A stretch of 64,000 nt of DNA from Bacilli bacterium (GCA_017626405.1 JAGAIS010000007.1:8280-72279), one strand, 5' to 3'; shown: positions 9,683 through 53,457, counted from the stretch's first letter. Notes: generated by a model not told the origin, from the sequence alone. Numbers and translations: made by a program.

Positions 9683-9691
9683 GAGGCAGTC

Positions 9692-13020: not shown

Positions 13021-13022
13021 AG

Positions 13023-17829: not shown

Positions 17830-17854
17830 AAAATAAAACAAGGAGGTAACACTA

Positions 17855-18196
17855 ATGTATAGAAAATTAGGAAGAGAATCTAGAATTAGAAGAAGTATAT
17901 TAGCTGGTATTACTAAAGATGTTATTATGAATGAAGGTGTTGTTACTACTGAAGCTAGAGCTAAAGAAGTAAGAAAGTTCGTTGATAAGATGATTACTTA
18001 TGGTAAAGATGGATCTTTAGTTGCAAGAAGAAAAGCCTTAGCTTTCTTACACAATGATAAACGTGTTGTTGATAAAGTATTTAATGAATTAGCTCCACGT
18101 TATAAAGAGAGAAATGGCGGATATACAAGAATCATTAAATTAAAAGAAAGAGTTGGAGACGATGCTCTAACTGTAAGACTTGAATTAGTTGACTAA
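17855..18196 (+). CDS. rplQ: 50S ribosomal protein L17
   Basis: MYRKLGRESRIRRSIL...GGYTRIIKL. Confidence 0.94.
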   Translation: MYRKLGRESRIRRSILAGITKDVIMNEGVVTTEARAKEVRKFVDKMITYGKDGSLVARRKALAFLHNDKRVVDKVFNELAPRYKERNGGYTRIIKLKERVGDDALTVRLELVD

Positions 18197-27971: not shown

Positions 27972-28283
27972 GTGATTATTTTGGAAGTACTCGACTTAAA
28001 CATTTTGAAAAGTAAATCTAAATCATCCTTTAGAGAATTAGAAAAAGAAGTTTTAGATATTTATGAAATTAAATTTAAAAATACTTATGATGCTGGAATT
28101 ATTCTAAATTATATCATCGAAAAAAAAATATACCAAGTATATTGTTATATATATACTAAAGATCAAGTAGTTTCTGGATTAAAGAGCAAAACGTTTAATA
28201 ATAAAATAAAATCTATTCTATATTTTAATTACTTAAAAATACTTATTAATATAAAAGGATTAAAATTTTTTTTTGAAGATTGA
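27972..28283 (+). CDS. hypothetical protein (103 aa)
   Basis: ORF only; its stop abuts the tandem repeat tract. Confidence 0.3.
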   Translation: MIILEVLDLNILKSKSKSSFRELEKEVLDIYEIKFKNTYDAGIILNYIIEKKIYQVYCYIYTKDQVVSGLKSKTFNNKIKSILYFNYLKILINIKGLKFFFED

Positions 28284-28375
28284 TTACAGTTTTATTACAG
28301 TTTTATTACAGTCTTATTACAGTTTTATTACAGAAATAAAAAAAGATATAAAAAAGATATAAAAAAGATACTCAT
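28283..28375. repeat. two adjacent 11-nt tandem repeat tracts (ATTACAGTTTT x about 4.6, then AGATATAAAAA x about 2.5)
   Basis: Direct reading: ttattacagttttattacagttttattacagtcttattacagttttattacag... aaagatataaaaaagatataaaaaagata. Confidence 0.85.
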
Positions 28376-28860: not shown

Positions 28861-29529
28861 ATGAATAACGATTTATTTTTTAAAGATTGTTTCACAGAGG
28901 TAGAAGGGGGAATAAATGCCGAGTTTAATAAAGCTACGGTAAAATGTTTTAATTCAACAAATAATGCATTTAGTATGGACTGTGATGGTAACCTAGTCGT
29001 CAATAGTATTATGACAAGAGAAGGTAATTCACAAAATATTGATATTCAAACAGTAGTTGATAAAATCTATCCAATAGGATCAATTTATATGAGTGTAAAC
29101 ACAACAAATCCAAGTACATTATTTGGTGGAACATGGGAGCAAATCAAAGATAGGTTTTTACTATGCTCAGGTGATAAATATACCAATGGATTACAAGGCG
29201 GTGAAGAGACTCATCAATTAAATATTAATGAGATTCCTAGTCATAATCATTTAGTAAATATAAATACTAGTGAAGGCGGATATCATGCTCATAATTTAAG
29301 AAGAGATATGGGAGGAGCTGAATTTGGAATAAGCGGCGGTGGTGCAACGGGTAATGCTTTACATGGTACGTGGACAAATACTAATATATGGCCTAACTCT
29401 ATTGGCGCAGCTGGTAATGGAAATCATATTCATAACGTATATGGATACACTAGTGCTAATGGAGGCAATTTAGCACATAATAATATGCCACCATACTTAA
29501 CTGTATGTGTTTGGAAAAGAGTTGCATAA
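28861..29529 (+). CDS. phage tail-collar domain protein (PF07484-like; microcystin-dependent-protein/baseplate-wedge-like)
   Basis: Motifs IYPIGSIYMS...LFGGTWEQI, GGEETHQLNINEIPSHNH and NNMPPYLTVCVWKR are the hallmark blocks of the tail-collar fold. Confidence 0.7.
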   Translation: MNNDLFFKDCFTEVEGGINAEFNKATVKCFNSTNNAFSMDCDGNLVVNSIMTREGNSQNIDIQTVVDKIYPIGSIYMSVNTTNPSTLFGGTWEQIKDRFLLCSGDKYTNGLQGGEETHQLNINEIPSHNHLVNINTSEGGYHAHNLRRDMGGAEFGISGGGATGNALHGTWTNTNIWPNSIGAAGNGNHIHNVYGYTSANGGNLAHNNMPPYLTVCVWKRVA

Positions 29530-29555
29530 AGCAGCTCTTTTATATAGGAGGAAAA

Positions 29556-32500
29556 ATGAAAGAAATAATAGAATTAAGAAAAGAAAGGGAAAAACATTAT
29601 TTAAATAATGACGGAACTGTAACTGCATATATGTATAATGAAGATATTCATTATTTAGAAAATGGTGAATATAAAGAAATCGATAATACTCTAGTAGAAG
29701 AAGATGGGTATATTACTAATAAAGCTAATAATTTTAAAATAAGACTTAATAAAAATAAATATTTAGTTAAGATAGAATTAAATGAAAAAGAATATTTGAA
29801 TATATCGTTAAGAAATGCTAATGCCGTTTCAGCTCATATTCTTAATAATGAAGTAATGTATAAAGAAATATTATCTAATATAGATATCCAATATTTAGTA
29901 CATGGGAAAACATTGAAAGAAAATATTATATTAAAAGATAAATTAAATAGTAACATTGTATTTAATATAGAAACAAATTTAGAATTAGTTATAAGTGATT
30001 CAAAAGTTCTAGCTAAAAATGGTGATAATATCATATATGTTTTTAATCCATTATTTATGATTGATGCGAAAGAACAAATAAATAATAATTGCAATTATAA
30101 ATTAACAAAATTAGAAAATGGATATGAATTAGAATTTATTCTTGATGAAAAATATTTAATTGAAGCAGAATATCCTATAGTTATAGATCCTACAGTAACT
30201 ACTGATAATTTAGAAAATGTTGAAGATATTACTTTATATTCTAGTCAACCGGATCATGCAGCTGCAAATACAAACTATTTATCAGTCGGTAGTGATGCTA
30301 ATGGTATTATGAGAACTTTATTAAAGTTTGATTTACCGAAAATAGCAACTGGGAATAATATAATTAAAGCTACTGCTTATCTAAAACATTTCGGGTCATA
30401 CATTAATGAAAACCCTAAAACTATTGGTGTGTATGAAGTAACAACTAATTGGAGTGAATCTACAGCAACATGGAATAATATGAATAATAATTATAATCCT
30501 AAAATGGAAACTTATTTAACTCCACCACAAATGGTTGATACAAATTCTTCATTTGACATAGATTTAACGAATATAGTTAAAAGATGGTATTCTGATAAAG
30601 AAAATAAAGGAATAATGTTAAAATGTTTAGATGAAAGTTATGATTCTACAATGCCATATTACTCATTTTATTCAAAAACTTATGATTATTTAAATAGTAC
30701 GACTTATCGTCCACTATTAACTATTGAATATCGTTTGCAAAATGGGCTACTAGATTATATGACTTATGAAAATGTGTCTTTTTCAATCGGCAATAGTTAT
30801 GTTAACAATTGTACCGGAAATTTTTCAAATGTAGTATCTTTGTCTGAAATATTAGACAGTACATGTTTGTTTGAAATGTCATTAACTTATAATACGCATG
30901 ATGTGATATTAAATAAGAATAATAAATTTGGGCTAGGTTTTAATATTAGTTATAATGACACTATTGAAGAAACCATAAATAAATATATGGAGAAGGAATA
31001 CAAATATACATGTTCAGATGGAACTAGTCATTATTTTTATAAATATATAAAAGAAGACGGAACCGATAGTGGGGAATACCATGATGAGGATGGTTTCTCT
31101 TTAACATTAGAAATAAAGAACGAAACTACTAAAGAATTCATTTTAAAAGACAAAAATAATAATGTATATAATTTTACAAATGGCTTTTTATCTAAAATAG
31201 AATATGCTGATAAAACTTATGTAAATATTACAAGAGATTTTGAAAATAAAATTACATCAATAAAAGATAGTAAAAATAATGAAGCAACTATCAGTTATTA
31301 TGAAAATAAAGTTATTTTTGCTAATGGAAACAAAAATATTACAATCAATATTTCTAACAATAAATTGACAAGTATAGTATGTAAAAATGGAAATCTTAGT
31401 TTTGAATATAATAGTAATTCTTTGATTTCTAAAATAATTGATACTAATGGACTTAGTATGGGTGTTGATTATTATAATATTGAACCATATAAAGTAAGTA
31501 AAATAACTGAATATGGTTTAAATAATGAAGAAGGTAAATCTAAATCTTTTGTTTATGAATTTAATTCAACAACGGTAACAGATAATCAAGACATTAAAAT
31601 GAGATATACATTTAATAATTTAGGTAATACTATTAGTACTGTTTTAATTAGTGACGATAATTCTTTAAAAAAATCTTATGGTTTTTCTAGTACATATGTA
31701 AATGAATTAAAAACACCAATAACAAATAAACCTTTAGCTTCAACTTTACCGATAAAATATGGTGAAAACCTGATTAAAAATGGTAGTTTTGAAACTGATG
31801 AAAAGAACTTCTTTACTAACTTTAGAAGTAGTGAAGATAGTTTTTCAGGAAGTTATTCAGTCAAAATAGAAAGTTATGGTTGTGCAGAGCTAGATAGAAT
31901 TCTTGAAAAAGATAAAACCTACACTTTTAGTGCATATTTTAAAAATAATGATATAATTGATATTCAAGTTTATGGTACGAGAGCAACTGGTCAAGATATA
32001 ATATACGAAGAAACTATTATGCCTAATTCTGAATTTACAAAATGCGATTTTACATTCGATGTAACTTATGGTTATTCTTGCGTAGGTTTTACAATTGACG
32101 TTAGAAATGATGGTATTGCATACATAGATGATGTGGTAATAAATGAAGGTGATGTTGCAAATAATTGCAATTTGATAGATAACTCAAATTTTGTTAAAGG
32201 TATTGATGGATGGAATGTTAGTGGAAGTATTGATGGTTCAGACGATATTGTAGCTAATCCATATGAAATTATTACTTTACCATCCAATGAAAAAGCAATC
32301 CAATTAAATAGTATTGTTAATGGTAGTGTATCGTTGTTAAAAACACTTAACATATCTGGTAAAAAAGGTGATACATTTACTTTTTCATTCTGGTATAAAA
32401 ACGAGGGAGTTCTAGATACAAGTTATAATATGGTTGGTAATTTGGTATCATTAACATTTTTTGATTCTAATTCTGAATTCGGTGAATGTATTAATAATGT

Positions 32501-35500
32501 TATTTTAAACTATCATGCTGATAATTGGCAATTTCATACAGAAACATGTATAGCTGAAAACGACTTTGATTCAATAGACATTAGAGTGTTTAGTATTTAT
32601 GAAACAAATCATTTACTTTTAACTAATTTTTCTCTTACTAGAGATTTAGGGTCTTTCTTTTATGAATACGATGAAAACGGAAATTTAATATCGACTATTT
32701 ATCCAGATAATAGTAAGATAAAAATGGCATATGATAAAAATAACCAATTACTGGGAGTCTTTGATGTTAAAGGTAATAATTACAGTTATGAATATGATAA
32801 TATAAAAACAGATAGATTATTAAAAGGAATTAGTCCGACAGGAATATCAAACGAAATAAAATATGATAGTTTTGGTAATCCTGTGAGAACTATAATAAAT
32901 AATGTTAATCCAAATGGTAATGAAATAAGTGGCGATTATTATATTCGATCAAAAGGAACAGATAAATATATTACACCTAATTTAAAAACAGGAGAGTTAT
33001 CACTAAAAAATGATACTTGTAGTCATTATTCTTTTTCAATAGTAAACCATAATGAAACTGAAACCAATACAAAAGTATATAATTTTACATCTTCTATTTT
33101 ACCAAACTATAAATTAACAAAATTAGAAGATAAAGCTATTCTTCAAAAAGATTCAACAGGCACTTATTTTGAATTAATTCAAAAAAATAATGGTTCATAT
33201 AATATTAAAGTATATAAAGAAGACTTATATCTTAAGGTAAATGAAGGTAGAATATCTTTAGCAAACCTAAAAGACACATCAGATTTTGAATTTTATTTTG
33301 AAACCACAAATTCTGATGAATTTATTGAAAATAGAGCCGAGTATACAGTTGATGGTAAACATATTACTAAAATTATAGATAGTTTAGGTAAAGAAACTAC
33401 ATATAGCATTAATAATGATACTGGATTAATAGATTATACTGTTTATCCTAATAATGAAAAATATATATATGAGTATAATGACAAAGATGAATTAATACGC
33501 TTATCTAAGGATGAAAAAAATATAAATTATACATATAGCAATCAGTTATTAAAAAGTGTGACTTCTGGAAATAAAACAGTTACATTTAATTATGATAATT
33601 TCTTAAATCCTTCTGAAATAAAAATTAATAATAAACTTTTAGTTAAAGATAATTATCAGTTTGATAAATTGACATCAAAAAATTATGGAAATGGGTCAAG
33701 TATTAAGTATTATTATGATGAATTAAATAGAATAAGTAAAGTTGAAAAAGAAGATAGAGTGTTTACATATAAATATAATAATTTAGGAACTCTAGACTCG
33801 ATAATAGATCATTCAACAAGTGGATATAATTATAGTTTAAAATTTAATTATGACTTTGCAAATAGATTATCTAATATTAAATGTAAAAATATGAGAATTG
33901 AATATGTTTATGACACATTTGGAAATATAATCCAAGAAAAAAATGCTTTAAATAATACTACTCATAATTTAGAATATAGTTTTAATCAAAATAATATATT
34001 AACCAAAATAAAGATAGATGATGATGCCATAAATTACAACTACGACAATTTAGAAAGATTAACAAGTGTAAATATAAATAATAATATAAAAACAGAATAT
34101 ACTTATAAAAAAATGGGTAAAAAATTATCTACTGTTATTAATACTATTAAAAAAGGAGAAGATCTATATCAATATTTTTATGATGAATTATACAACATTA
34201 TTAAGGTTACAAAAAATGGTAATACCAGTAAAGAATATGTTTATGACACTAATAATCAATTATTAACTGAAAATAATCATGATTTAAATATGAAGTTTAT
34301 ATATAATTATGATTCTGAAGGAAATATAACTTCAAAAAAAATCTTCAATTTAGAAGATAATACGTTAATTAAAGAGGACACATATGCTTATTCAAATGTT
34401 GAATGGGAAGACGAATTAACTAGCTTTAATAATGAAAATATATGTTATGATGACATCGGAAATCCAATAAGCATTGGAAATAAAACATTAAATTGGGAAA
34501 ATGGAAAAGAATTAAAATCGTATTGCGATGATATAAATACATTTGAATATTCATATAATGTTGCTGGTTTTAGAACAAATAAAAAGATTAATAATAAATT
34601 AATTGAATACTATTTAGATGATGATAAGGTTTTATTTGAATATAGCGATGATTATGTGTTATACTTCATGTATGATGATAATGATAATTTGATTGGATTT
34701 AAGAAAAACGACCAAACTTATTACTACAATAAAAATTATCAAAATGATATTATTGGAATTTATGATAATAATTATAATGAAGTTGTTAAGTATAACTATG
34801 ATTCATGGGGAAAATTAGTTTCTATTTTGGATGCTAATAATAAAGAAATTATAGATAAAAACAACATAGGAATGATAAATCCATTTAGATACAGAAGTTA
34901 TTATTATGATCAAGAAACAGGTTTATATTATTTAAATAGTAGATATTATAATCCAGAATGGGGAAGATTTATTAATTCTGATAAGATTGCTTTTTCGAGC
35001 AATGGATTATTTGGAATAAACTATTACTTATATGCTAATAATAATCCAATTAATTATATTGATTCGAATGGTGATTTCCCTTTTGCTATACCAGTGCTTG
35101 GCGCAGCAGAAATAGCCGCAGGGTTTGTTTTAGCTGCTACACTAATCTATGCTACTGCAAAAGCTATACAAAGTGTCGGTCCCATTTCGATTGATTTAGA
35201 TCTAAACGTAAGTACTCCTCCTAAAAAGGAAAAAAAATCAAAGAAAAAAAATGATAAAGATGGTAAAAATTGTTATATATATGGATTATATAATGGTACT
35301 AAAATTGAGTATGTTGGAAGAACATATGATTTGAAAGTTAGAGAAGCTCAGCATAAGCGAACTATTAGAAAAGACTTAGAAATGCATAAAATTCATACAA
35401 CTACATCATATGAAGATTGTCGAGCATACGAGCAATACTATATTGAAAAATATAAAACGCTGAATAGAGTGATAAAAAAATCGGAAAGAATTAACAATCA

Positions 35501-35588
35501 AAGAAACGGCGTGGCAATAGATTCTCCATTCTATAGAGATTATGTTAGACCATTGAAAACAGTTTATGGAGAAACATACGTAGGATAA
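29556..35588 (+). CDS. Rhs/YD-repeat polymorphic toxin (2010 aa) with two CBM_4_9-like modules, RHS core and a C-terminal GIY-YIG nuclease-like toxin domain; no signal peptide
   Basis: ATG 29556 follows TAGGAGG. NLIKNGSFE / NLIDNSNFVKGIDGW CBM-like motifs. Many YD repeats (YDxxGN, YxYD). RHS core end PFRYRSYYYDQETGLYYLNSRYYNPEWGRFINSD. Putative autoproteolysis region IDSNGDFPF. C-terminal CYIYGLYNGTKIEYVGRTYDLKVREAQHKR...N matches the GIY-x10-YxG...R...H...N nuclease motif. Confidence 0.85.
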   Translation: MKEIIELRKEREKHYLNNDGTVTAYMYNEDIHYLENGEYKEIDNTLVEEDGYITNKANNFKIRLNKNKYLVKIELNEKEYLNISLRNANAVSAHILNNEVMYKEILSNIDIQYLVHGKTLKENIILKDKLNSNIVFNIETNLELVISDSKVLAKNGDNIIYVFNPLFMIDAKEQINNNCNYKLTKLENGYELEFILDEKYLIEAEYPIVIDPTVTTDNLENVEDITLYSSQPDHAAANTNYLSVGSDANGIMRTLLKFDLPKIATGNNIIKATAYLKHFGSYINENPKTIGVYEVTTNWSESTATWNNMNNNYNPKMETYLTPPQMVDTNSSFDIDLTNIVKRWYSDKENKGIMLKCLDESYDSTMPYYSFYSKTYDYLNSTTYRPLLTIEYRLQNGLLDYMTYENVSFSIGNSYVNNCTGNFSNVVSLSEILDSTCLFEMSLTYNTHDVILNKNNKFGLGFNISYNDTIEETINKYMEKEYKYTCSDGTSHYFYKYIKEDGTDSGEYHDEDGFSLTLEIKNETTKEFILKDKNNNVYNFTNGFLSKIEYADKTYVNITRDFENKITSIKDSKNNEATISYYENKVIFANGNKNITINISNNKLTSIVCKNGNLSFEYNSNSLISKIIDTNGLSMGVDYYNIEPYKVSKITEYGLNNEEGKSKSFVYEFNSTTVTDNQDIKMRYTFNNLGNTISTVLISDDNSLKKSYGFSSTYVNELKTPITNKPLASTLPIKYGENLIKNGSFETDEKNFFTNFRSSEDSFSGSYSVKIESYGCAELDRILEKDKTYTFSAYFKNNDIIDIQVYGTRATGQDIIYEETIMPNSEFTKCDFTFDVTYGYSCVGFTIDVRNDGIAYIDDVVINEGDVANNCNLIDNSNFVKGIDGWNVSGSIDGSDDIVANPYEIITLPSNEKAIQLNSIVNGSVSLLKTLNISGKKGDTFTFSFWYKNEGVLDTSYNMVGNLVSLTFFDSNSEFGECINNVILNYHADNWQFHTETCIAENDFDSIDIRVFSIYETNHLLLTNFSLTRDLGSFFYEYDENGNLISTIYPDNSKIKMAYDKNNQLLGVFDVKGNNYSYEYDNIKTDRLLKGISPTGISNEIKYDSFGNPVRTIINNVNPNGNEISGDYYIRSKGTDKYITPNLKTGELSLKNDTCSHYSFSIVNHNETETNTKVYNFTSSILPNYKLTKLEDKAILQKDSTGTYFELIQKNNGSYNIKVYKEDLYLKVNEGRISLANLKDTSDFEFYFETTNSDEFIENRAEYTVDGKHITKIIDSLGKETTYSINNDTGLIDYTVYPNNEKYIYEYNDKDELIRLSKDEKNINYTYSNQLLKSVTSGNKTVTFNYDNFLNPSEIKINNKLLVKDNYQFDKLTSKNYGNGSSIKYYYDELNRISKVEKEDRVFTYKYNNLGTLDSIIDHSTSGYNYSLKFNYDFANRLSNIKCKNMRIEYVYDTFGNIIQEKNALNNTTHNLEYSFNQNNILTKIKIDDDAINYNYDNLERLTSVNINNNIKTEYTYKKMGKKLSTVINTIKKGEDLYQYFYDELYNIIKVTKNGNTSKEYVYDTNNQLLTENNHDLNMKFIYNYDSEGNITSKKIFNLEDNTLIKEDTYAYSNVEWEDELTSFNNENICYDDIGNPISIGNKTLNWENGKELKSYCDDINTFEYSYNVAGFRTNKKINNKLIEYYLDDDKVLFEYSDDYVLYFMYDDNDNLIGFKKNDQTYYYNKNYQNDIIGIYDNNYNEVVKYNYDSWGKLVSILDANNKEIIDKNNIGMINPFRYRSYYYDQETGLYYLNSRYYNPEWGRFINSDKIAFSSNGLFGINYYLYANNNPINYIDSNGDFPFAIPVLGAAEIAAGFVLAATLIYATAKAIQSVGPISIDLDLNVSTPPKKEKKSKKKNDKDGKNCYIYGLYNGTKIEYVGRTYDLKVREAQHKRTIRKDLEMHKIHTTTSYEDCRAYEQYYIEKYKTLNRVIKKSERINNQRNGVAIDSPFYRDYVRPLKTVYGETYVG

Positions 35589-35624
35589 CAAAATATAGCC
35601 AATTTTGACGAAAGGGATAAGTAT

Positions 35625-36659
35625 ATGGAAAATAAAAAAACTTTAATGAATTGTGAACATGGAGATACATTTGCTCTAAGAATAGTTTCAAATCAAGAAT
35701 ATAAAGATAGATATTTGATTTTTATTAGGTTTGAAACTGATTTATATGAAGATGAAAAAAATTCTAATGATACAAGTAAGCTTTTTCGAGTTAAACTCAC
35801 TAAAAATAAAGAACTTCCAAAAAGTTTTGAAGAGTTAGAGGAACTACCTTATATTATTTGTAAAATAACTTGTTATGCAAAGAGATATTGGCCATTAGAT
35901 TCTGATATGGAATATAAAGAGATAGTAGAAAAATATAAAAATGTAAAATATTATCCGGACAAATACAATTATTTATATTCATATTTGCTTATCTTGAGTG
36001 ATTATAGATGCAAAAGATATGTAAAAAACTACGTCTATTTAGGGAATTTTTCTCTAACTCCACCAGAAAAAGAATACTTTCCAGTTGATATATTTGGTAA
36101 CGTTTTTCTTCTTATAGATGATTTAGAAAGATATTGTTTGAAAAGCTATCATGAGCATAATTTGAAAAAAGGAAAAGAATATTCTGAAGAAGCCGCAAAA
36201 GAAAACAACGCTTATGCGGAGGAAGAAGTGAAAATTCAAATGGAACTTCATAATAATATAAGAAAAAGAAATAACAAAATTTTAATAACTTCAATATCTG
36301 GATGGGGAACGGGACTATATGATTGTGATACAGCGTTGGATATGAGAGATGATTATCAAAGGTATTTATTAGAATATGATTATAAAGAAGTTTTAATATT
36401 AATGAAAAAGCAATATAAAGATTTTTTAAACGATAGAGAAGAAAAAACAATATTTTGGATGGTTATTGCTGATCAAGAAATAAAAAGAAAGATACTTATT
36501 CCTGAAGTAAAAGAAAAAGCGTTAAAGTCTATAGAAGATAATTTAATTATTTGGAAAGAATTAGATCCTAAGAATTATAATATTAGAAAACAAAAATTGT
36601 ATGGATTAAAAAAAAGAATCAACGATTTTAAAAATGCTAACATAAAAAGAGATTTTTGA
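35625..36659 (+). CDS. putative cognate immunity protein of the Rhs GIY-YIG toxin (344 aa, possibly two fused immunity domains)
   Basis: Immediately downstream of the toxin gene. Cytoplasmic. C-terminal GWGTGLYDCDTALDMRDDY block resembles a DUF4259-type immunity motif (from memory). Confidence 0.5.
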   Translation: MENKKTLMNCEHGDTFALRIVSNQEYKDRYLIFIRFETDLYEDEKNSNDTSKLFRVKLTKNKELPKSFEELEELPYIICKITCYAKRYWPLDSDMEYKEIVEKYKNVKYYPDKYNYLYSYLLILSDYRCKRYVKNYVYLGNFSLTPPEKEYFPVDIFGNVFLLIDDLERYCLKSYHEHNLKKGKEYSEEAAKENNAYAEEEVKIQMELHNNIRKRNNKILITSISGWGTGLYDCDTALDMRDDYQRYLLEYDYKEVLILMKKQYKDFLNDREEKTIFWMVIADQEIKRKILIPEVKEKALKSIEDNLIIWKELDPKNYNIRKQKLYGLKKRINDFKNANIKRDF

Positions 36660-36687
36660 AAACATCTCTTTTTTATATGGAGGAACT
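36646..36687 (+). terminator. hairpin + TTTTTTATATGGAGGAA junction motif, copy 1 (terminator-like; overlaps the immunity gene stop)
   Basis: AAAGAGAT-loop-ATCTCTTT then TTTTTATATGGAGGAACT. Nearly identical to the sequence at 41963-42004. Confidence 0.55.
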
Positions 36688-36804
36688 ATGAGATACGAAA
36701 TGAATAATATCAAACATTGTCCAATTAAAGGGGTTACAGCAGTCACTGTAACCTCTAAATTTGGACCAAGAACATTTTACAATAGAGTAGAAGGATGCGA
36801 TTAA
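36688..36804 (+). pseudogene. duplicated 5' fragment (38 codons) of the M23 peptidase gene found intact at 42005
   Basis: MRYEMNNIKHCPIKGVTAVTVTSKFGPRTFYNRVEGCD* vs MRYKMNNIKHCPIKGVTAVTVTSKFGPRRFYNRVEEKYESGHH. About 95% nt identity over about 130 bp, then divergence and a stop. Confidence 0.8.
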
Positions 36805-37322
36805 ATGTGAAGAAGAAATTATACTATAATATTGTATGCTATGATGTTTTAATAATAATGATATATGCAGTTGCAGGTATAGCTTTTTTCTTTGCATTTA
36901 ATACATTTATTGGTTTATTTACAATTATTCCAATTGTATTGGAATCGAAAAGATTAGTAAAAAACATTCAAAATATACCTTTAGTTATAGAAAAAACTGA
37001 AAATGGAATCATACTATATGAAAGTTCAAACGTTATTTTAACTGATAAGTCTTTGATTAGCCTAAAAAGATACATTTTTTCTATTGACTATCTTAATATT
37101 AACGATATTTATATAAGCAATGAATATTTTATATATGAACATGCACAAAACTTATGTTTACTTTCTAATGAAAATAAAAAATATAAAATTGTGTATATAT
37201 ATACTCTTTATTCACTTTTAACATATAAGCATGAAATAAAACAAATTCTAGAAATAATAAAAACATATAATAAAAATATTGAACTATATGGCAAAATAAA
37301 AGAAATATATGAAAAAGAATAG
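36795..37322 (+). CDS. hypothetical membrane protein (possible orphan immunity protein)
   Basis: 175 aa, N-terminal TM pair. Located between the M23 fragment and the orphan rhs-CT. Confidence 0.4.
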   Translation: MRLNVKKKLYYNIVCYDVLIIMIYAVAGIAFFFAFNTFIGLFTIIPIVLESKRLVKNIQNIPLVIEKTENGIILYESSNVILTDKSLISLKRYIFSIDYLNINDIYISNEYFIYEHAQNLCLLSNENKKYKIVYIYTLYSLLTYKHEIKQILEIIKTYNKNIELYGKIKEIYEKE

Positions 37323-37355
37323 TAATGGTTCAAGAAAAATGATTATAGTGGTTCA

Positions 37356-38393
37356 TTGATAGGATTTAAATATAATAATGAAATATACTATTATCAAAAG
37401 AACTATCAAAATGATATAACAGGAATCTATGATAGTAGTTATAACTTAGTGGTAATATATAAATATAATGGATGGGGTAAAGTATTATCAGTAGTAGATA
37501 ATACAACAAATAATATAGGAAGTATAAATCACTTCAGATATAGAAGTTATTATTATGATGAAGAGACAAGTTTATATTATTTAAATAGCAGATATTATAA
37601 TCCAAAATGGTGTAGATTTATAAATGCCGATGGAATAATAGGAGCAAACCAAGATATCTATAGTTATAATCTATACTTATATTCAAGCAATAATCCAATA
37701 AAAAATTATGATTCTGAAGGAAAATCTATATTTGGTGCCATAGCTATTTGTGGTATAATTGGTGCTGCATTGAATGTTGCTCCAACATTTATAGGGGATG
37801 TAGCGAAATCTATAAAGAACAAAAAGGTAACATACTCAGGATGGAAAGCATATGCATCTGGAGCTATAGGAGGCGCAGTAGGTGGCGCAGTTGGATATTT
37901 ATGTCCGGGAGCATATTTTGCACCAATAGTTGCTTCATCATTAACAACATCTGTTTCAAATTCTCTTTTTAATAAAAAAGACCTGGATAAAACAGTAGAA
38001 ACCGCTCTAAGTGATGTAATTATAGATACAACAGTTGGAAGATTAACGAAGAATATAAAGATTCCTAAAATAAACTCTGGGAAAAATAGTTTTGCATCAG
38101 TTTTTAAGTCTGGTATAACAAAACTTAATAAAAAAACTGTAAAAAATATGTCGTTAAAAGTAATTGCAAAAGGTGTAACTTCAGAAAGTGTTTCATCTTC
38201 AATTGACTCGTCAATAGCATATTATCCAAAAAAAATAGTTGAGGATCTAAAAGAACAATCAAATGTAGTAGTTAAAGATAATGACTATGTTAGTAATTGT
38301 ATTGAGTGTTCAAACCCATCACATAATTACCCAACACTAATCCATAATGATAATAGAAATGATTATTATTGTTTATGTGTTAAGTGGGATTAG
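37356..38393 (+). CDS. orphan rhs C-terminal toxin module (RHS core end + glycine-zipper/Cys-rich toxin domain), TTG start, no ATG
   Basis: LIGFKYNNEIYYYQKNYQNDITGIYD...HFRYRSYYYDEETSLYYLNSRYYNPKWCRFINADGI is homologous to residues about 1715-1830 of the main Rhs. Divergent CT with GAIGGAVGGAVG glycine zipper and C-terminal CxxC...YYCLCVKWD. Confidence 0.75.
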   Translation: MIGFKYNNEIYYYQKNYQNDITGIYDSSYNLVVIYKYNGWGKVLSVVDNTTNNIGSINHFRYRSYYYDEETSLYYLNSRYYNPKWCRFINADGIIGANQDIYSYNLYLYSSNNPIKNYDSEGKSIFGAIAICGIIGAALNVAPTFIGDVAKSIKNKKVTYSGWKAYASGAIGGAVGGAVGYLCPGAYFAPIVASSLTTSVSNSLFNKKDLDKTVETALSDVIIDTTVGRLTKNIKIPKINSGKNSFASVFKSGITKLNKKTVKNMSLKVIAKGVTSESVSSSIDSSIAYYPKKIVEDLKEQSNVVVKDNDYVSNCIECSNPSHNYPTLIHNDNRNDYYCLCVKWD

Positions 38394-38447
38394 ATTATTA
38401 TTTGACTAAAATAATTATATAAAATATAATTAAAGTGGTGATATACT

Positions 38448-39242
38448 ATGGAAAGTACAAAATTTTTATTATTTGTAGGTATTATATTTTTGTTAGGGTT
38501 TATCATTGCTTTATTAAAAAGTATATATAAAGACATTAAAAAATATAAGAGTTTTGATGTTACAAATGTGAATGCAAAAATATATTATGAGCGTCAGCAA
38601 TGCAAAGAAAAAATTATCACTATGATAATAGGGCTTATTATTGTAATCGCATTTTTTCTTTATTGTATAATTAATCTCCCTAAAAAAATAGTTGGTACCT
38701 ATGATAACAATTATATGATAGAAAAATGTCAAATTGTCGATTATATAGAAAAACCAAAAGGAGCTTATAACGAAATGAGTTGCCATAGTGATAACTTTGA
38801 TATTACCAATGATTCTTTTGTAAACAAAAGTGGCGAGGAATTTTACTACGATGATATTGGCAAATACGCTTGTATAAAGTATTACCCAGATATGTATGTT
38901 GTTGAAATTATGAAAATAAGTGACAATGAGAACCTTATATGTGATAATTTTTATTGGCCAGGAAAAAACATCAACGATAAAACAAATTATAACTATTCGG
39001 TTATAAAATGTAATATTAAAAAGAATGATAATGGAAAAATTAATTGTGTATATGGATCAAATTTAAAAATAAATAATGTGACTTTACTTAACGAAAAAGA
39101 CATTAAAGAAAAAAGTCACGTTTGTCTAAAATACTATTGGGATAATAATACTGGTAAAATACTATATGTTAATGATACTAATAAAAACTTTAACTGCGAT
39201 AGATATTTAAAAACAGAAGAAGAAAAAGATAAAAAAGAATAG
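38448..39242 (+). CDS. putative immunity protein A (two-TM membrane protein with Cys-containing domain), cassette 1
   Basis: Follows the orphan toxin. Paralogous to 40433-41251 (shared blocks GTYDNNYMI, YACIKYYP, ICLKYYW..NTGKIL). Confidence 0.55.
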   Translation: MESTKFLLFVGIIFLLGFIIALLKSIYKDIKKYKSFDVTNVNAKIYYERQQCKEKIITMIIGLIIVIAFFLYCIINLPKKIVGTYDNNYMIEKCQIVDYIEKPKGAYNEMSCHSDNFDITNDSFVNKSGEEFYYDDIGKYACIKYYPDMYVVEIMKISDNENLICDNFYWPGKNINDKTNYNYSVIKCNIKKNDNGKINCVYGSNLKINNVTLLNEKDIKEKSHVCLKYYWDNNTGKILYVNDTNKNFNCDRYLKTEEEKDKKE

Positions 39243-39253
39243 AGATAAAGTTT

Positions 39254-39832
39254 ATGAGTGAAATATTTTTAAGATTTATACAAATTGGAGCAATGTGTAT
39301 ATCAATTTCTTTTATTGCTAAGATTACATCATCTAAAAATTTTAATGATATAAAAACAAAAAATGGATATTCATCAAAAAAAATTAAAGGTTATATCTCT
39401 TCTGATTTAGATGGGTATAAAAAAATTGTATTCGTATTATCTTTAATATTCTTTTTGTTAACAATCTATTTTTTAACTATTTATTTTCTAAAAATAAATG
39501 GCTATATAGTAGTACAAGAAAGCGAAAAAAATAATTCATTAAAAATAGCGTGCTTGATGTTTATTATATTTTTATTTAATTATTATATATTCATTTATAC
39601 ATCAAAAAGCAAGATATATTTTAATGATCAAGAAATTATAAAGTACAGGTTAATTGGAAAAAAACAAGTATTAAAATTTAGCGATATAGAAAAAGTTGTT
39701 GCTACACCAACCTCTAAATTAATATTGTATTCAAAAAATAATAGATTGGTTTTTGAATTAGAAAAATCAAATAGTAATAAGTTTATTGCACTACTTGCGA
39801 AAAAAGGGATAGATATTAATTACAAAATGTAA
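39254..39832 (+). CDS. putative immunity protein B (membrane protein with bacterial-PH-like C-terminus), cassette 1
   Basis: Paralogous to 41278-41835 (IYFN..EIIKYR.IG..Q.LKFSD..KV). Confidence 0.5.
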   Translation: MSEIFLRFIQIGAMCISISFIAKITSSKNFNDIKTKNGYSSKKIKGYISSDLDGYKKIVFVLSLIFFLLTIYFLTIYFLKINGYIVVQESEKNNSLKIACLMFIIFLFNYYIFIYTSKSKIYFNDQEIIKYRLIGKKQVLKFSDIEKVVATPTSKLILYSKNNRLVFELEKSNSNKFIALLAKKGIDINYKM

Positions 39833-39848
39833 AAAAATCTTAATGCAT

Positions 39849-39884
39849 AGGAGATATATTAAAAATATATCTCCTTTATATATG
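39849..39884 (+). terminator. hairpin + TTTATATATGGTGGAA junction motif, copy 2
   Basis: AGGAGATATATT-AAA-AATATATCTCCT perfect 12-bp stem, then TTTATATATGG. Confidence 0.55.
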
Positions 39885-40393
39885 GTGGAACGACCTCGTT
39901 ATTACCATTTGGCGGTGTAATTTCTATAGCATCTTCATCTATTGCTGAGTCAGTTACTACATCACTATTTGATAAAAAAAATGTAAAAGAGACTGCCGAA
40001 TACGCTTGTAACAATTTAGTTGAAGATTTAACAACAGGATTAGTATCATCCCTTATAAAAATTCCAGGATTAAATGCAGGAAGAAATAGTTATAATGCTG
40101 TTTTTAAATCTGGAATAACTAAAATATCTAAAAATACAGCTGCAAAAATATCTTTTAAAGTAATAGCTAAAGGAGTTGCAGTAGAAAGTTTTGGTACATT
40201 TACTACTGAAATACTCAAAAAAGGTTATGAAGTTTTAACTAAAGAACTTCCTAAAAATCCACAGCAGGCTGTTAATAATGAAGATAATAATCATAATAGA
40301 ATAGAATGTTGCAATCTTACACAAAACTATCCAACATTAGCTCATAGTAATACACAAGATAATTATTATTGCTTATGTGCTAGATGGGATTAA
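39863..40393 (+). pseudogene. 5'-truncated orphan toxin C-terminal fragment (homologous to the CT of 37356-38393), no start codon
   Basis: Open frame ...GGTTSLLPFGGVISIASSSIAESVTTSLFDKK...NAGRNSYNAVFKSGITKISKNT...CCNLTQNYPTLAHSNTQDNYYCLCARWD* aligns with ...FAPIVASSLTTSVSNSLFNKK...NSGKNSFASVFKSGITKLNKKT...NYPTLIHNDNRNDYYCLCVKWD*. Confidence 0.7.
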
Positions 40394-40432
40394 TTTAGTA
40401 TCTATATAGCATTTATTGACTTATTAATATGA

Positions 40433-41251
40433 TTGGAATATACTAAAATTGGTGATAAGATGGTTGAAAACAAGTTTTTAATAGTTATAATTTTGATTGT
40501 AATACCTGCTTTTTTAATATATTTTTGTGTTTGCTTTTATAAGCTATTAAAAAAGTTAAAAAAATTGAAAAAGTCTATGGAATCAGATAAAAAAAATCTT
40601 AAGATTTATAGTGAATATCAACGACATAAATATAGCGTAATTGCTTATGTTATTTTGATGCCAATTGTTTTTATATTATTAATTTATGGTTTTTTAGATA
40701 ATTCTAAAAGGCTTACAGGTATTTATGATAATAATTATATGATTCAAAAATGTGAGATAACAGAAGTGGATGAAGGTAGGTCACGTGCTGATAAAATAAG
40801 TTGTAAGAATGAAAATTTTTATACAAAGTATACAGTTGTTGAATATGGAGATTTAGATTACGAAGATGAAAGAAAATATGCTTGTATAAAGTATTATCCA
40901 AATGTGGAAGTAGCAGAAGTATTAAGAATAGATAACAAGGACAATTTATCCTGTGAAGAATTTTATTGGTCAAAAGAAAATGATAAATCAACTAATCTTA
41001 ATTATTCAGTTTTAAAATGTGATGTAAATGCTATTAATAGCAATATAATAGATTGTTCTATTGAATCTAGTACAAAAATATCCAATATAAAAATAGAAAA
41101 TGAAAAAAATATAAAAGAAAAAGATGGTATTTGCTTAAAATACTATTGGAGTGATAATACAGGAAAAATATTGGAAGTTAATCAATCTAATGAAAACTTT
41201 AGTTGTGATAAGTATATAAAACAGGAAGAAACTAAAGATAATACGAACTAG
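40433..41251 (+). CDS. putative immunity protein A', cassette 2
   Basis: Paralog of 38448-39242. Confidence 0.55.
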   Translation: MEYTKIGDKMVENKFLIVIILIVIPAFLIYFCVCFYKLLKKLKKLKKSMESDKKNLKIYSEYQRHKYSVIAYVILMPIVFILLIYGFLDNSKRLTGIYDNNYMIQKCEITEVDEGRSRADKISCKNENFYTKYTVVEYGDLDYEDERKYACIKYYPNVEVAEVLRIDNKDNLSCEEFYWSKENDKSTNLNYSVLKCDVNAINSNIIDCSIESSTKISNIKIENEKNIKEKDGICLKYYWSDNTGKILEVNQSNENFSCDKYIKQEETKDNTN

Positions 41252-41277
41252 TTTTTAAAATAAGCAGGAGTTAATCT

Positions 41278-41835
41278 ATGGATAGAATATTTATAAGATT
41301 TTTAGAAATATCATGTAGTTGTTTTTTATGGGTTGCAACCTTTAAGTTAGGGAAATGGATACTTACAGTAAAAAGGAAGAATAATTTCTTAGTTACTAAA
41401 AATAAGAAAGATTATGTAAGCATTAGCAATGATCGTTATAAAGGAGTATTATTTGTTGTTTTAATTATTGCTCTTATACCTTCTTTATTTTTTACTATAA
41501 GTGGACTATTAGGTGTTAAAGATGTTGAAGGTAATAATGTAATATTTATAGCAATGGTATTTTGGGTAATAGTATTTTTATCTTTAATTTTATTAATTTA
41601 TTATTTTCGATGCAAAATATATTTCAATAATGATGAAATTATCAAATATCGTTTTATCGGACATAGACAAAAATTAAAGTTTTCTGATGTAAAAAAAGTC
41701 ATGGTTAAACCACTATCAGGTATAGTATTGTATTCAGAAAATGGTAAATTAAAAGTGGACTATGACAATCCTAATGCCAGTAAATTAGTCTCTATACTAG
41801 AAAAGAAAGGTTTCATTGTTAACTATAAAATATAA
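41278..41835 (+). CDS. putative immunity protein B', cassette 2
   Basis: Paralog of 39254-39832. Confidence 0.5.
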   Translation: MDRIFIRFLEISCSCFLWVATFKLGKWILTVKRKNNFLVTKNKKDYVSISNDRYKGVLFVVLIIALIPSLFFTISGLLGVKDVEGNNVIFIAMVFWVIVFLSLILLIYYFRCKIYFNNDEIIKYRFIGHRQKLKFSDVKKVMVKPLSGIVLYSENGKLKVDYDNPNASKLVSILEKKGFIVNYKI

Positions 41836-41962
41836 ATATAGTTCTTATATTAAATAATAGTATTTTTTATCTATCCAAAGCTACCTCATCAATGGTAACT
41901 TTAAATTGCTATCAAATCATAAATGCATCAAATTTTTAAAAATAACGAGTTACAAACACTCT

Positions 41963-42004
41963 AGAGATATACTATAAAATATCTCTTTTTTATATGGAGG
42001 AATT
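41963..42004 (+). terminator. hairpin + TTTTTTATATGGAGGAA junction motif, copy 3, immediately upstream of the intact M23 gene RBS
   Basis: AGAGATAT-ACTATAAA-ATATCTCT then TTTTTTATATGGAGGAATT ATG. Confidence 0.55.
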
Positions 42005-42649
42005 ATGAGATACAAAATGAATAATATTAAACACTGTCCAATTAAAGGGGTTACAGCAGTCACTGTAACCTCTAAATTTGGACCAAGAAGATTTTACAAT
42101 AGAGTAGAGGAGAAATATGAATCTGGACATCATAATGGAATTGATATAATTGGTGGAGATACCATTGTTGCTGCTTATGATGGGGTAGTTACTAAAACTA
42201 GAAATGGAGTAAAAGGATATTCAACTAAAAACTCGTGTGGTAATTATGTTACTATCGATCATGGCAATGGGTATACTACTGTTTACTATCATTTAAAACT
42301 AGATTCAATCAAAGTAAAAAAAGGGGATCGTGTTATTGCTGGTCAAGAAATAGGTTTAATGGGAAATACAGGACATTCAATATCTAAACACTTACACTAT
42401 GGAATTAAAAGAAATAATGTATGGATTAACCCGGAGCCATTTCTTAACAATACAAAAAATATTGAAAATACTAGTAATATAAAAGAAACTAATAATAAAG
42501 AAATAATATATGTCGTAAAAAAGGGTGATAATTTAACTAAAATAGCTAAAAAATATAATACTACTTGGAAAGCAATTTATAAAAAAAACAAGGAACTTAT
42601 TGGGGATAATCCCAATCTTATACTTGTTGGATGGAAATTAAAAATATAA
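42005..42649 (+). CDS. M23 family metallopeptidase with C-terminal LysM domain (peptidoglycan endopeptidase, endolysin-like)
   Basis: HxxxD (HHNGIDI) and HLH (HLHYGI) M23 motifs. C-terminal LysM (YVVKKGDNLTKIAKKYNTTWKAIYKKN). No signal peptide. Confidence 0.8.
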   Translation: MRYKMNNIKHCPIKGVTAVTVTSKFGPRRFYNRVEEKYESGHHNGIDIIGGDTIVAAYDGVVTKTRNGVKGYSTKNSCGNYVTIDHGNGYTTVYYHLKLDSIKVKKGDRVIAGQEIGLMGNTGHSISKHLHYGIKRNNVWINPEPFLNNTKNIENTSNIKETNNKEIIYVVKKGDNLTKIAKKYNTTWKAIYKKNKELIGDNPNLILVGWKLKI

Positions 42650-43017
42650 TTGATTTAAAAATAATAGCAAGTACGTTTATTTTTTTAGTTGGTGGTTTTG
42701 ATAATATGTTTATTACTCTTTTAATTTTTATTGCTCTTGATTATATAACAGGTATAATTAAAGCAATTTATCAAAAAAAATTAAATAGCAAATTGGGATT
42801 AAAAGGATTTTTAAAAAAATTAGGTTATATTTTGATAGTAATAGTTGCAAGTTTATTTGATTCAATTATAGGAGATAAACAAATGGCGATAAGAACATTA
42901 TGCATATATTTTTTTATATCTAACGAAGCCATTTCAATACTTGAAAATTGGGCAGTTATGGGCCTTCCTCTTCCGAAAAAGATATTTCAAGTGTTTGAAT
43001 CTTTAAAAGAAGAATAA
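42631..43017 (+). CDS. TcdE/phage_holin_4_1-family holin-like protein (toxin-secretion/lysis holin)
   Basis: 3-TM, 128 aa. Blocks KIIASTFIFLVGGFDNMFITLLIFIALDYITGIIKA and NEAISILENWAVMGLP are characteristic of this holin family. Overlaps the M23 gene end by 19 nt. Confidence 0.65.
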   Translation: MEIKNIIDLKIIASTFIFLVGGFDNMFITLLIFIALDYITGIIKAIYQKKLNSKLGLKGFLKKLGYILIVIVASLFDSIIGDKQMAIRTLCIYFFISNEAISILENWAVMGLPLPKKIFQVFESLKEE

Positions 43018-43021
43018 ATGT

Positions 43022-43050
43022 TGACTAAGTTGAAAAAAAGGGTTAATATA
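43022..43050 (+). promoter_or_regulatory. sigma-A-type promoter (TTGACT-17-TAATAT) for the regulator gene
   Basis: -35 at 43022-43027, -10 at 43045-43050. Confidence 0.45.
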
Positions 43051-43079
43051 TACAACCAAGTAGTTTAAGAGGTGATTAT

Positions 43080-43589
43080 ATGATTGATTCAATTTCAGCT
43101 AAGGACTTTGTTGAATTACCAGATATTATGTTAGATAAATCTAAGAATGTAAAATATATTCAACTATTAAGTGAGAATACAATAGATGACTATTACTATT
43201 CAAATTTGCGAAAAGATTTAGAAGTTATATTTAATAAGTTCAAAGATTCTAAATATCTTATACATTATCAAAATGACTATAACTTAAAATCTAATCCTTT
43301 TGAAATTAATAGAAATACCAATAGAATTAATGATAAAGTAGGAAACTATATTGAGAAAAAATTAGATCTAAGTATTTGGTCAAAAGATCTTTATAACATC
43401 TTAATCAATCTATCCGAAGAACTGACAATAAAGGAGACAATATATTTAACTTCTACATTCTTTGATAATAAAACAGAAGAAGAAATAGAAGAACTAATGG
43501 ATATTTCAAGAAAAATGTTATATAAAATAAAAAAGAGTTGTCTAGTAAAATTAAGATTAGAATTTTCAAAATATAATTTAATTGATTAG
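43080..43589 (+). CDS. small sigma-70 region-4-like / ArpU- or TcdR-like transcriptional regulator (hypothetical)
   Basis: 169 aa. C-terminal EEEIEELMDISRKMLYKIKKSCLVKLR resembles a sigma region-4 HTH. Located next to the holin. Confidence 0.35.
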   Translation: MIDSISAKDFVELPDIMLDKSKNVKYIQLLSENTIDDYYYSNLRKDLEVIFNKFKDSKYLIHYQNDYNLKSNPFEINRNTNRINDKVGNYIEKKLDLSIWSKDLYNILINLSEELTIKETIYLTSTFFDNKTEEEIEELMDISRKMLYKIKKSCLVKLRLEFSKYNLID

Positions 43590-52855: not shown

Positions 52856-53457
52856 TTTGCATATTTTCTAATAATATGCTATAATGTTTCATGTGTGGTG
52901 CATTATGCTAGTCATTACACTATTTGAAGGTAGGGCTAAAAATCTACCAATTGTACATCTGACACTTTGCCTATTTGCTTCTTCGGCCCAAGTTGGGGTG
53001 GATAGGTGATTTAAAATTCAAGGATAAATTATAATGGCATATAGTTGATATTCCTTCTATTGAGTCTCTTATACAAAGAATAGTAAATAACGTACATGAT
53101 GTGAGTGGTTTTTAGGGATTAACGATTTAAATGTTATGAAATAGAAATTGCAAAAGCATATAAGAATAGTCACTATTGTTAGGGAAAACCTCTAGCGTGT
53201 ATATATTATAAGTATTGGAGTGCGGACTAAGTGGTAATCGAGTAGTTGATTCGGTGACGACCAACTGCTTAATTTAAAGCGAAAGCGCTTGCGGGTAACT
53301 AAAAGTATTAAGTAGAGAAATTCAACTCGACCAAAGCCGTAAAATTGATTTATAATATACCATACAAGAATAACCAAACTTTAATGAGGGGGAAGCCAAG
53401 TTAAAGTTTTTTTCATGGATTAAAATATGTTATAATAGATAAAGATAGGTGGGTAAT

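Follow-up and report, generated by a model that had tools for sequence, protein, structure and literature searches.

Rhs 'C-terminal displacement' arrays of orphan toxin and immunity genes have been described in Enterobacteria and in bee-gut bacteria (Poole et al., 2011, PMC3150448; Steele et al., 2017, PMC5727410), and homology-facilitated illegitimate recombination has been proposed both for Rhs orphans and for the effector/immunity arrays of Vibrio cholerae's type VI secretion system (T6SS) (Kirchberger et al., 2017, PMC5361080). Large clostridial toxins and Rhs-containing Tc toxins are known to depend on a holin for their release (PMC10847048). Here we describe an Rhs locus in a 64-kb stretch of DNA from a Bacilli bacterium (GCA_017626405.1, JAGAIS010000007.1:8280-72279; the whole stretch is referred to as the window, and coordinates are counted from its first letter), in which an element composed of a hairpin, a T-run and a Shine-Dalgarno (SD) box is present three times upstream of a gene for an M23 peptidase. 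The locus has the tested defining features of an Rhs orphan-cassette array, and the event at the second copy of the element has those of homology-facilitated illegitimate recombination. We consider it very probable that the element is the native 3' border of a toxin cassette, multiplied by homology-anchored cassette exchange, and that it is a record of shuffling rather than a special site.

The region has the organization of an Rhs polymorphic-toxin locus with orphan cassettes: a full-length Rhs gene with a variable tip (tip A) is followed by an immunity-like gene, an orphan tip (B1) with two small genes (264 and 192 amino acids, aa), a start-less second tip (B2) with a paralogous pair (272 and 185 aa), the M23 gene (which also encodes a LysM domain) and a holin gene (Table 1). 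The three copies of the hairpin, T-run and ATATGG(A/T)GGAA lie where the original prediction had placed them. In copy 1, the stem arms AAAGAGAT and ATCTCTTT form eight perfect pairs around a loop of 10 nucleotides (nt), followed by TTTATATGGAGGAA; in copy 2 (hairpin at 39850-39874), the arms GGAGATATATT and AATATATCTCC form 11-12 pairs around a 3-nt loop (AAA), followed by TTTATATATGGTGGAA; in copy 3 (hairpin at 41963-41986), the arms AGAGATAT and ATATCTCT form eight pairs around an 8-nt loop, followed by TTTTTTATATGGAGGAA. Five to six T residues occur within the 7 nt after each stem, and the RNA folding energies of copies 1, 2 and 3 are -10.3, -13.2 and -9.9 kcal/mol, respectively (z-scores against shuffled sequences -3.0, -3.1 and -2.4). 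With up to two mismatches allowed, the 15-nt tail TTTTATATGGAGGAA was found at these three sites only in the 64 kb (0.73 expected; three occurrences reached in 2 of 100 shuffles), and a search with the hairpin-plus-tail pattern matched copies 1 and 3, with none expected. An exact search with a 21-mer in a large metagenome collection, which probably does not include this species, gave 12 matches, all in unrelated contexts and none at M23/Rhs loci, and Rfam scans of the region (at a permissive threshold) and of the whole window gave no match at the hairpins. The motif is confined to this locus and is not a dispersed element, and in this it differs from the common genome-wide terminator that the original prediction had named as the finding that would speak against its proposal; in form, the hairpins nonetheless belong to the ordinary terminator class of the window.

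The comparison sequences, all of them metagenome assemblies, include three further strains of the window's species (L016, L024 and L026), in which the holin gene and the 169-aa gene that ends the module are 99-100% identical to those of the window. Copy 2 is a true homologue of the element, given that L016 has the base-for-base same hairpin leading straight into the ribosome-binding site and start codon of M23. In L016 and L024, the copy-2 hairpin is followed by TATATGGAGGAATTATG and by the codons of M23 or of an M23 stub, which is a normal gene junction; the toxin gene of L024 reads ...GTTGGTGGAGCGACCTCG..., and the window and L026 read TATATGGTGGAACGACCTCG. Because the window/L026 sequence combines the L016/L024 junction with the L024 toxin sequence, the breakpoint here (J2) is best read as a joint within a microhomology (TGGNGGA) that the M23 SD box shares with a site inside toxin B2, and the A/T variation in the motif as originally described would be the scar of this joint. 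To the right of J2, window positions 39891-41962 are 99.8-100% identical to positions 7219-9290 of L024, and this segment is absent from L016, which has a single hairpin there. The M23 gene of L016 starts ...ACAGCATAAAT..., the type linked to hairpin 2 and also found in the L024 stub behind that hairpin; the M23 gene of the window starts ...ACAAAATGAAT..., which is the type that goes with hairpin 3. Within M23, the window and L016 differ only in the stretch 42015-42411, and the 1.58 kb that follow show no difference. Since the M23 5' end of L016 is of the hairpin-2-linked type and the differences stop at 42411, L016 appears to represent the pre-insertion state, and the window to have gained the fragment; a deletion in L016 as the origin of the difference between copies 2 and 3 was rejected on the grounds of the same M23 5' type.

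Across the strains, every cassette comes with a hairpin variant and a set of first ~10 M23 codons that are specific to it. Together with the absence of the B2 segment from L016, this bears out the earlier proposal of recombination at the junction of terminator, ribosome-binding site and M23 5' end, and the hairpin copies do coincide with cassette boundaries, as had been suggested, with the main toxin/immunity cassette changing to the left of hairpin 1 between sister strains. The B2 insertion has the features of a recombination product: one border lies in continuous homology that fades by 42411 in M23, and the other is a microhomology joint. Both allele types were recovered, L016 being of the pre-insertion type and L024 of the donor type (100% identity over 542 nt between the B2 remnant and the 3' end of the full-length L024 Rhs gene, 100% over the 127-nt spacer, and 99.8% over the 272/185-aa pair, which in L024 directly follows this B2-tipped Rhs gene).

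The duplication of the M23 start after copy 1 is also real, in the form of a 38-codon open reading frame (ORF) that is 95.5% identical to M23 over 133 nt counted from 36659 (92% over 144 nt for the direct repeat of 36648-36791 and 41965-42108); only 35 of its codons are M23-derived. The breakpoint at which M23 homology stops (J1, between ...GTAGA and AGGATGCGATTAAATG) is identical in six copies (window, L016, L026, L025 and two in L024), and because of this identity J1 appears to be one old event. The start of the 175-aa ORF that follows overlaps the stop of the stub (ATGCGATTAA), which suggests translational coupling of the ORF to the stub. The only homologues of this ORF among 5.8 billion proteins were the linker copies themselves, and it showed no similarity to the 192-aa protein; single-sequence AlphaFold models of the 175-aa and 169-aa proteins had confidence scores (pLDDT) of 53 and 34, respectively, which is too low for a search by fold. 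Among five linker copies (the sixth, in L025, ends at a contig edge), identity is 61-84% in the hairpin and first stub codons, 94-100% in the 3' end of the stub, 98.7-100% at the nucleotide level in the 175-aa ORF, and 83-97% in the Rhs core piece. Both L024 copies of the ORF (9440-9970 and 12646-13176) share one premature stop, and the L026 copy has a C-terminal frameshift; on the basis of the shared stop, the near-identity of the ORF would reflect recent spread or gene conversion rather than strict selection. Since the hairpin and first ~10 codons are particular to each upstream cassette, different cassettes would be joined by ordinary homologous recombination in the middle of the linker, where it is conserved. 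In a short contig from another sample (L030, 1-2470), orphan Rhs tips abut the preceding small gene, with no hairpin, stub or 175-aa linker, and one of these tips has 94% nucleotide identity to B1; because the tips adjoin that gene directly, the linker does not appear to be obligatory for orphan stacking.

A second duplication, which the original prediction did not mention, concerns the 3' end of the Rhs core: positions 34672-35065 recur at 37339-37714, and it is this duplication that would make the region an orphan-toxin array. The core ends of the main and orphan Rhs proteins are 54% identical over 162 aa up to NNPINYIDSNG/NNPIKNYDSEG and then diverge, with the end motif of the main core (...NNNPINYIDSNG, aa 1845-1856, nt 35037-35072) being a variant of the classical PxxxxDPxGL. 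The shared and then diverging core end, together with the Rhs-associated core domain, identifies the ORF at 37326-38393 as an orphan Rhs tip. Identity between the B2 remnant and the last 146 aa of B1 is 42%.

The sister strains differ in the arrangement of these cassettes. The window has tip A with the 344-aa gene, then the B1 orphan with the 264/192-aa pair, then, after copy 2, the start-less B2 remnant with the 272/185-aa pair. L016 has a different main tip with a minus-strand small gene, followed by an orphan Ntox44 tip with 199- and 58-aa genes and then the 264/192-aa pair, and lacks the B2 segment; L026 has a third main tip, an orphan region like that of L016, and a B2 segment identical to that of the window. 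The main cassette of L024 comprises a complete B2 toxin (a 2062-aa Rhs protein in which B2 is the main tip), the 272/185-aa pair, the spacer and hairpin 3, and its orphan region comprises an M23 stub, the 175-aa ORF, a B1-type orphan with the 264/192-aa pair, hairpin 2, a second stub with a 175-aa ORF, and two more orphans. Thus, there are four different main tips in four strains, and all four combinations of orphan-tip type and B2 presence are found among them. In L016 (2322-4188) and L026 (7280-9146), the Ntox44 tip, which is split by a frameshift, and the 199- and 58-aa genes replace B1, and the 264/192-aa pair is kept without its toxin; this replacement reads as a case of 'effector lost, immunity retained'. 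M23, too, varies within the species: the L024 allele (17531-18151) is only 58% identical to that of the window in amino acids and 70% in nucleotides, and next to this divergent allele the holin and 169-aa genes of L024 are 99.5% and 100% identical to those of the window. A 133-nt Rhs-core fragment lies just upstream of the M23 hairpin in L024.

The proposed history starts from a native element consisting of a terminator-like hairpin and T-run, followed within 3-5 nt by the SD box and start of the M23/LysM gene that, with the holin gene, closes the module. Strains would exchange cassettes by recombination for which conserved flanks serve as anchors, with the Rhs core to the left and the M23 5' coding region to the right, and the element would be present three times because each incoming cassette brings its own hairpin, SD box and first M23 codons. 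In the presumed order of events, an old illegitimate join in M23 codon 35/36 (J1, 36791/2) would have fused the M23 stub to the 175-aa ORF and an Rhs core fragment; the product would be the linker that separates cassettes in every strain of the species seen (twice in L024), and copy 1 would be the hairpin of the current main cassette joined to this linker. At copy 2, the 192-aa gene would once have met M23 in a functional junction, which L016 retains. Next, a strain with a B2-tipped Rhs protein, such as L024, would have contributed a 2.07-kb fragment that brought with it the 3' part of the B2 toxin together with its two small genes and spacer, as well as hairpin 3 and as much as ~400 nt of M23. 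The right end of this fragment would have been joined by homologous recombination inside M23, and the left end by an illegitimate join over TGGNGGA, between the M23 SD box and an internal codon run of the toxin. Such homology-facilitated illegitimate recombination would have stranded copy 2, produced its A-to-T variant, and placed copy 3 before M23.

As for what the hairpin does, a stem-loop with a T-run and an SD box stands directly upstream of M23 in six of eight lineages. The eight stem variants (AGAGAT, GGAGATATAT, AGAGATAT, AGAGCAT, AGAGCAAT, AGAGTAT, AAGGTAAT and AGAGTGATCAT), which lie upstream of different M23 alleles or stubs, were compared after anchoring by hand, as MAFFT misaligned the stems in the automatic alignment. 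All eight are fully paired, with compensatory double changes at seven of eight stem positions, and the maintenance of pairing through compensatory changes in every variant argues that the hairpin structure itself is under selection. The window contains 17 plus-strand hairpin/T-run elements (14 besides these copies), compared with 2.5 in shuffled sequences, and most are at gene ends. The three copies likewise stand at the ends of units: copy 1 overlaps the stop codon of the immunity-like gene, copy 2 begins 17 nt after the stop of the 192-aa gene, and copy 3 127 nt after that of the 185-aa gene. We infer from these features that the hairpin is most likely an intrinsic terminator at which toxin/immunity transcripts stop, so that there is less read-through into the M23-holin pair, which is potentially lytic. 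As for the earlier suggestion that the motif might be a dedicated recombination or regulatory site, its regulatory half is plausible in the sense of an ordinary terminator or insulator.

The recombination half of that suggestion is not supported. A hairpin that acts as a site-specific recombination site, in the manner of a folded integron attC, with a recombinase inserting and excising cassettes there, would account for the presence of hairpins at all three cassette borders and for a B2 cassette that lies between two ~40-nt hairpin copies and is absent from L016, and palindromes do serve as sites for some recombinases; we nevertheless regard this as highly improbable. The breakpoints are scattered: the main-cassette border falls in or close to the loop, J2 in the SD box (9-17 nt past the stem) and J1 ~120 nt downstream in M23 codon 35/36, with homologous crossovers in M23 codons ~9-35 or further in. 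J2 is a microhomology chimera inside toxin coding sequence, as is typical of illegitimate recombination and not of a site-to-site event, and L016 is not an excision product, given its M23 5' type. The stem sequences differ between M23 alleles, with only the pairing conserved; no Rfam family matched the hairpins; and no integrase, transposase, or serine or tyrosine recombinase was found among the ORFs scanned in the window or the sister-strain loci (the distant L018 group alone has integrases, and these lie downstream of the module). Recombination here is anchored by homology and does not use a dedicated site. An origin of the repeats by tandem duplication or unequal crossing-over within the genome of one lineage, rather than by import from other strains, seems to us just as improbable as such a site. 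The paired cassettes are too diverged for recent duplication (42% identity between the B1 and B2 tips, 37-42% between the small genes), particular cassettes keep their hairpin and first-codon variants from strain to strain, and all four orphan-tip/B2 combinations exist among the four strains; the B2 fragment of the window, by contrast, matches the main tip of another strain at 100% identity, which favors cassette import. What duplication or gene conversion within one genome would explain is that the two linker copies of L024 share a premature stop and the same substitution, and linker copies, once present, offer ~620 bp of near-identical DNA for unequal crossing-over.

It is also unlikely, although less so than these two alternatives, that the element controls the M23-holin release genes as a regulated attenuator or translational switch, with the duplicated copies kept for that function. 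The 3' arm and T-run (CUCUUU) can pair with either the 5' arm or the SD box (GGAGG or AAAGGA), the T-run is only 3-5 nt from the SD box, the hairpin structure is conserved across alleles, and a lysis module needs tight control; in colicin operons, a terminator sits before the lysis gene. RNAalifold, given seven variants, chose the pairing of the 3' arm with the SD box, with six pairs kept in all but one sequence at one position, but this result rests on the MAFFT alignment with misaligned stems, and such complementarity is nearly automatic when the 5' arm is an SD-like purine-rich sequence (AGAG). Sites with this complementarity are at 36665-36685, 39870-39890 and 41982-42002, and upstream of M23 in L017, L024, L032 and L036. 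No known riboswitch or leader family was found with Rfam, and copies 1 and 2 are no longer before M23, so that their retention needs no such function; a switch would in any case be compatible with cassette exchange as the source of the copies. Several observations sit less easily with a native, terminator-bearing border multiplied by cassette exchange. Hairpins 1 and 3 have only two G-C pairs, and a stricter terminator scan flagged copy 2 only; with the T-run 3-5 nt from the SD box, efficient termination leaves the start of M23-holin transcription unaccounted for. The 175-aa ORF fills the gap between stub and core fragment almost exactly, which is odd. L024 is donor-like only. Repeats of 40-150 nt could cause mis-assembly; however, 12 contigs share the layout, and J2 is present in an independent run (L026).

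The features of the locus are listed in Table 1.

Table 1. Coordinates of the genes, cassette remnants and hairpin copies of the Rhs locus in the window.
Feature	Position	Strand	Remarks
Gp10_C-like small protein	28861..29529	+	Pfam PF21939, E 3e-22; opens the conserved module
Full-length Rhs toxin, 2027 aa	29505..35588	+	RHS/YD repeats (PF05593, TIGR01643); DNRLRE/CBM96 N-terminal domains; Rhs_assc_core (TIGR03696) at aa 1765-1856; 171-aa variable tip A
Immunity-like gene of tip A, 344 aa	35625..36659	+	Directly after toxin tip; stop codon in hairpin 1 loop; no family match
Copy 1	36646..36687	+	Hairpin 36646-36671, T-run, SD box ATATGGAGGAA; to the left, window and L016 DNA differ, and homology begins here
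M23' stub	36688..36804	+	38 codons and stop; ATG at 36688; M23 homology stops at 36791 (J1)
175-aa linker ORF	36795..37322	+	N-terminal membrane helix; start overlaps stop of stub; known from these linkers only
Orphan Rhs tip	37326..38393	+	Core fragment (homology from 37339; motif SNNPIKNYDSEG at 37686) and 223-aa tip B1; Rhs_assc_core E 6e-16
Small membrane-type genes, 264 and 192 aa	38448..39832	+	Candidate immunity pair for B1; paralogous to the 272/185-aa pair (42% and 37% identity)
Copy 2	39849..39890	+	Hairpin, T-run, chimeric SD box ATATGGTGGAAC; former junction of 192-aa gene and M23; J2 within 39883-39890
Start-less tip B2 remnant	39891..40393	+	Open frame 39863-40393, 176 codons, no ATG/GTG/TTG start
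Second small-gene pair, 272 and 185 aa, DUF6560-like	40433..41835	+	Candidate immunity pair for B2; 99.8% identical to L024 pair
Spacer, 127 nt	41836..41962	+	Moves together with the B2 cassette; L024 and L026 copies 100% identical
Copy 3	41963..42004	+	Hairpin, T-run, SD box of intact M23; in L024, same hairpin after same spacer, but before a stub
M23 peptidase with LysM, 214 aa, intact	42005..42649	+	PF01551 E 6e-24; PF01476 E 2e-11
Phage_holin_4_1-family holin	42631..43017	+	Pfam E 3e-37; follows M23 in all related loci
Conserved 169-aa gene	43080..43589	+	Ends the module; weak sigma-70 region-4/helix-turn-helix signal

No signal peptide was visible at the N-terminus of the 2027-aa Rhs protein. 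Its tip A (35061-35588) has a weak, sub-threshold match to a GIY-YIG nuclease domain (E 0.002; 18.8 bits versus a cut-off of 22.6), and the main toxin may have a nuclease tip. A 67%-identical homologue of the 344-aa gene follows an A-like tip in L024. The small genes after each tip co-vary with the tip across strains; we infer an immunity function for them. Promoter-like boxes stand directly 5' of both small-gene pairs, a sigma-70-like TTGACT-17-TATAAT at 38402-38430 for the 264/192-aa pair and TTGACT-17-TATACT at 40416-40444 for the 272/185-aa pair, and with these near-consensus boxes expression of the orphan immunity-like genes may not depend on a toxin gene. The probable start of the 272-aa gene is an ATG further downstream (~40459) and not the TTG at 40433. 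Profile comparison of the 169-aa family with PDB and Pfam gave sub-threshold sigma-70 region-4/helix-turn-helix matches only. About 200 nt 5' of the first small gene of the module, an 11-nt unit (TTTTATTACAG) occurs in 4-5 tandem copies (28268-28333), which may be a regulatory binding array.

The window is core chromosome, with a ribosomal-protein/SecY/RpoA operon upstream of the locus and UvrB and an OLE (Ornate Large Extremophilic) RNA downstream. The OLE RNA is full-length (52879-53379, plus strand; Rfam RF01071, 234.6 bits, E 6e-65) and is consistent with an anaerobic Firmicute host. No T6SS or type VII secretion system (T7SS) genes were found among the window ORFs scanned. The M23-holin pair had no match in phage collections, and a recent prophage origin is not supported.

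Homology searches placed the locus among a graded series of relatives. A query of species-representative genomes with M23, in a set from which the window's species is absent, found distant M23 proteins in unrelated phyla only, and the graded series was obtained from M23 homologues in metagenome assemblies; an exact look-up of the M23 protein of the window gave 12 contigs, all with the same layout. Searches with tip B1 and the 175-aa ORF, which led to L024 and L026, gave two matches and one match, respectively, and found neither family outside this species group. The conserved module (28861-43589 in the window) is present in at least six lineages in different chromosomal neighborhoods (L017, L018, L024, L032, L036 and L038-L040), with one to three Gp10_C-like genes upstream of Rhs in every related locus. 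More distant lineages have a simple layout in which Gp10_C-like gene(s) and Rhs are followed by one small gene or a few of them and then by M23, holin and a ~170-aa gene, and this simple form (Rhs, small gene, M23, holin) would be ancestral.

The locus offers an unusually complete base-level case of the growth of a polymorphic-toxin locus, in which a donor-type allele, a pre-insertion allele and the product all come from natural populations, the illegitimate joint between an SD box and a toxin codon run can be read, and old immunity-like genes are retained while toxins are truncated. What is particular here is that the downstream anchor has been multiplied as a by-product, that an ORFan hitch-hikes in the linker, and that the setting is of Gram-positive type with an M23-holin pair. 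It indicates that an essential-looking downstream flank (terminator, SD box and 5' end of the next gene) can act as a portable homology arm, and it is a warning for annotation, in that short 'genes' such as the 38-codon stub and ribosome-binding-site-like boxes such as that of copy 2 can be recombination debris. The conserved association of Rhs, M23 peptidase and holin in uncultured low-GC anaerobes also points to a possible release route. One might go further and propose that the linker (a terminator hairpin, an SD box and a 35-codon M23 leader coupled to the ORFan 175-aa membrane protein, with an Rhs core piece) is a selected adaptor for recombinase-free stacking and shuffling of cassettes, and that the whole module is an undescribed holin/hydrolase-dependent Rhs bacteriocin release system of Gram-positive anaerobes; we regard this combined proposal as speculative and rather doubtful.

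Compared with described systems, the hairpins resemble integron attC sites in being hairpin-forming elements at the cassette borders of an array of promoter-poor cassettes, but here there are variable breakpoints, cassettes with their own promoter boxes, no conserved core sites, and no integrase found among the ORFs scanned. Like the intrinsic (Rho-independent) terminators found in low-GC Firmicutes, they have a short loop on a perfect 8-12-bp stem, a run of 5-6 T and a position at operon ends, and they differ from those terminators in having only 2-3 G-C pairs, in abutting the SD box of the next gene, and in being present as homologous copies duplicated with their flanks. As in colicin operons, the C. 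difficile pathogenicity locus (PaLoc; TcdE/TcdL/TcdR) and the type 10 secretion system (T10SS) of Yersinia Tc toxins (PMC10847048), a large signal-less toxin is encoded beside a cell-wall hydrolase and a holin, a small gene that looks like a regulator is close by, and a terminator-like element lies between the toxin/immunity and release genes; the likeness is an analogy only, since the hydrolase here is of the M23 type, the regulator assignment is weak, and the toxin is a bacteriocin-type Rhs protein with immunity-like genes.

The closest correspondence is with Rhs orphan arrays, which likewise have a full-length Rhs gene with a conserved core and variable tip, an immunity-type gene after each tip, downstream orphans that keep the core 3' end with a different tip, and tips swapped between strains. 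Here, in contrast, the host has a low-GC, Gram-positive-type genome, the right-hand anchor is a peptidase/holin pair with no T6SS or T7SS genes found among the ORFs scanned, and two of the orphans are set apart by a linker composed of an anchor-gene stub and an extra ORF and do not abut the previous immunity gene. In mechanism, the locus is comparable to the T6SS arrays of Vibrio, in which incoming DNA is anchored by homology at one end and joined without homology at the other, and in which the old effector is lost or truncated and the old immunity genes are kept, giving rise to immunity arrays. It differs from these arrays in that the best-resolved event is anchored downstream, in M23, and not upstream, and in that the joint can be read at the base level, with an SD box as the microhomology and with donor-type and pre-insertion alleles both in hand.

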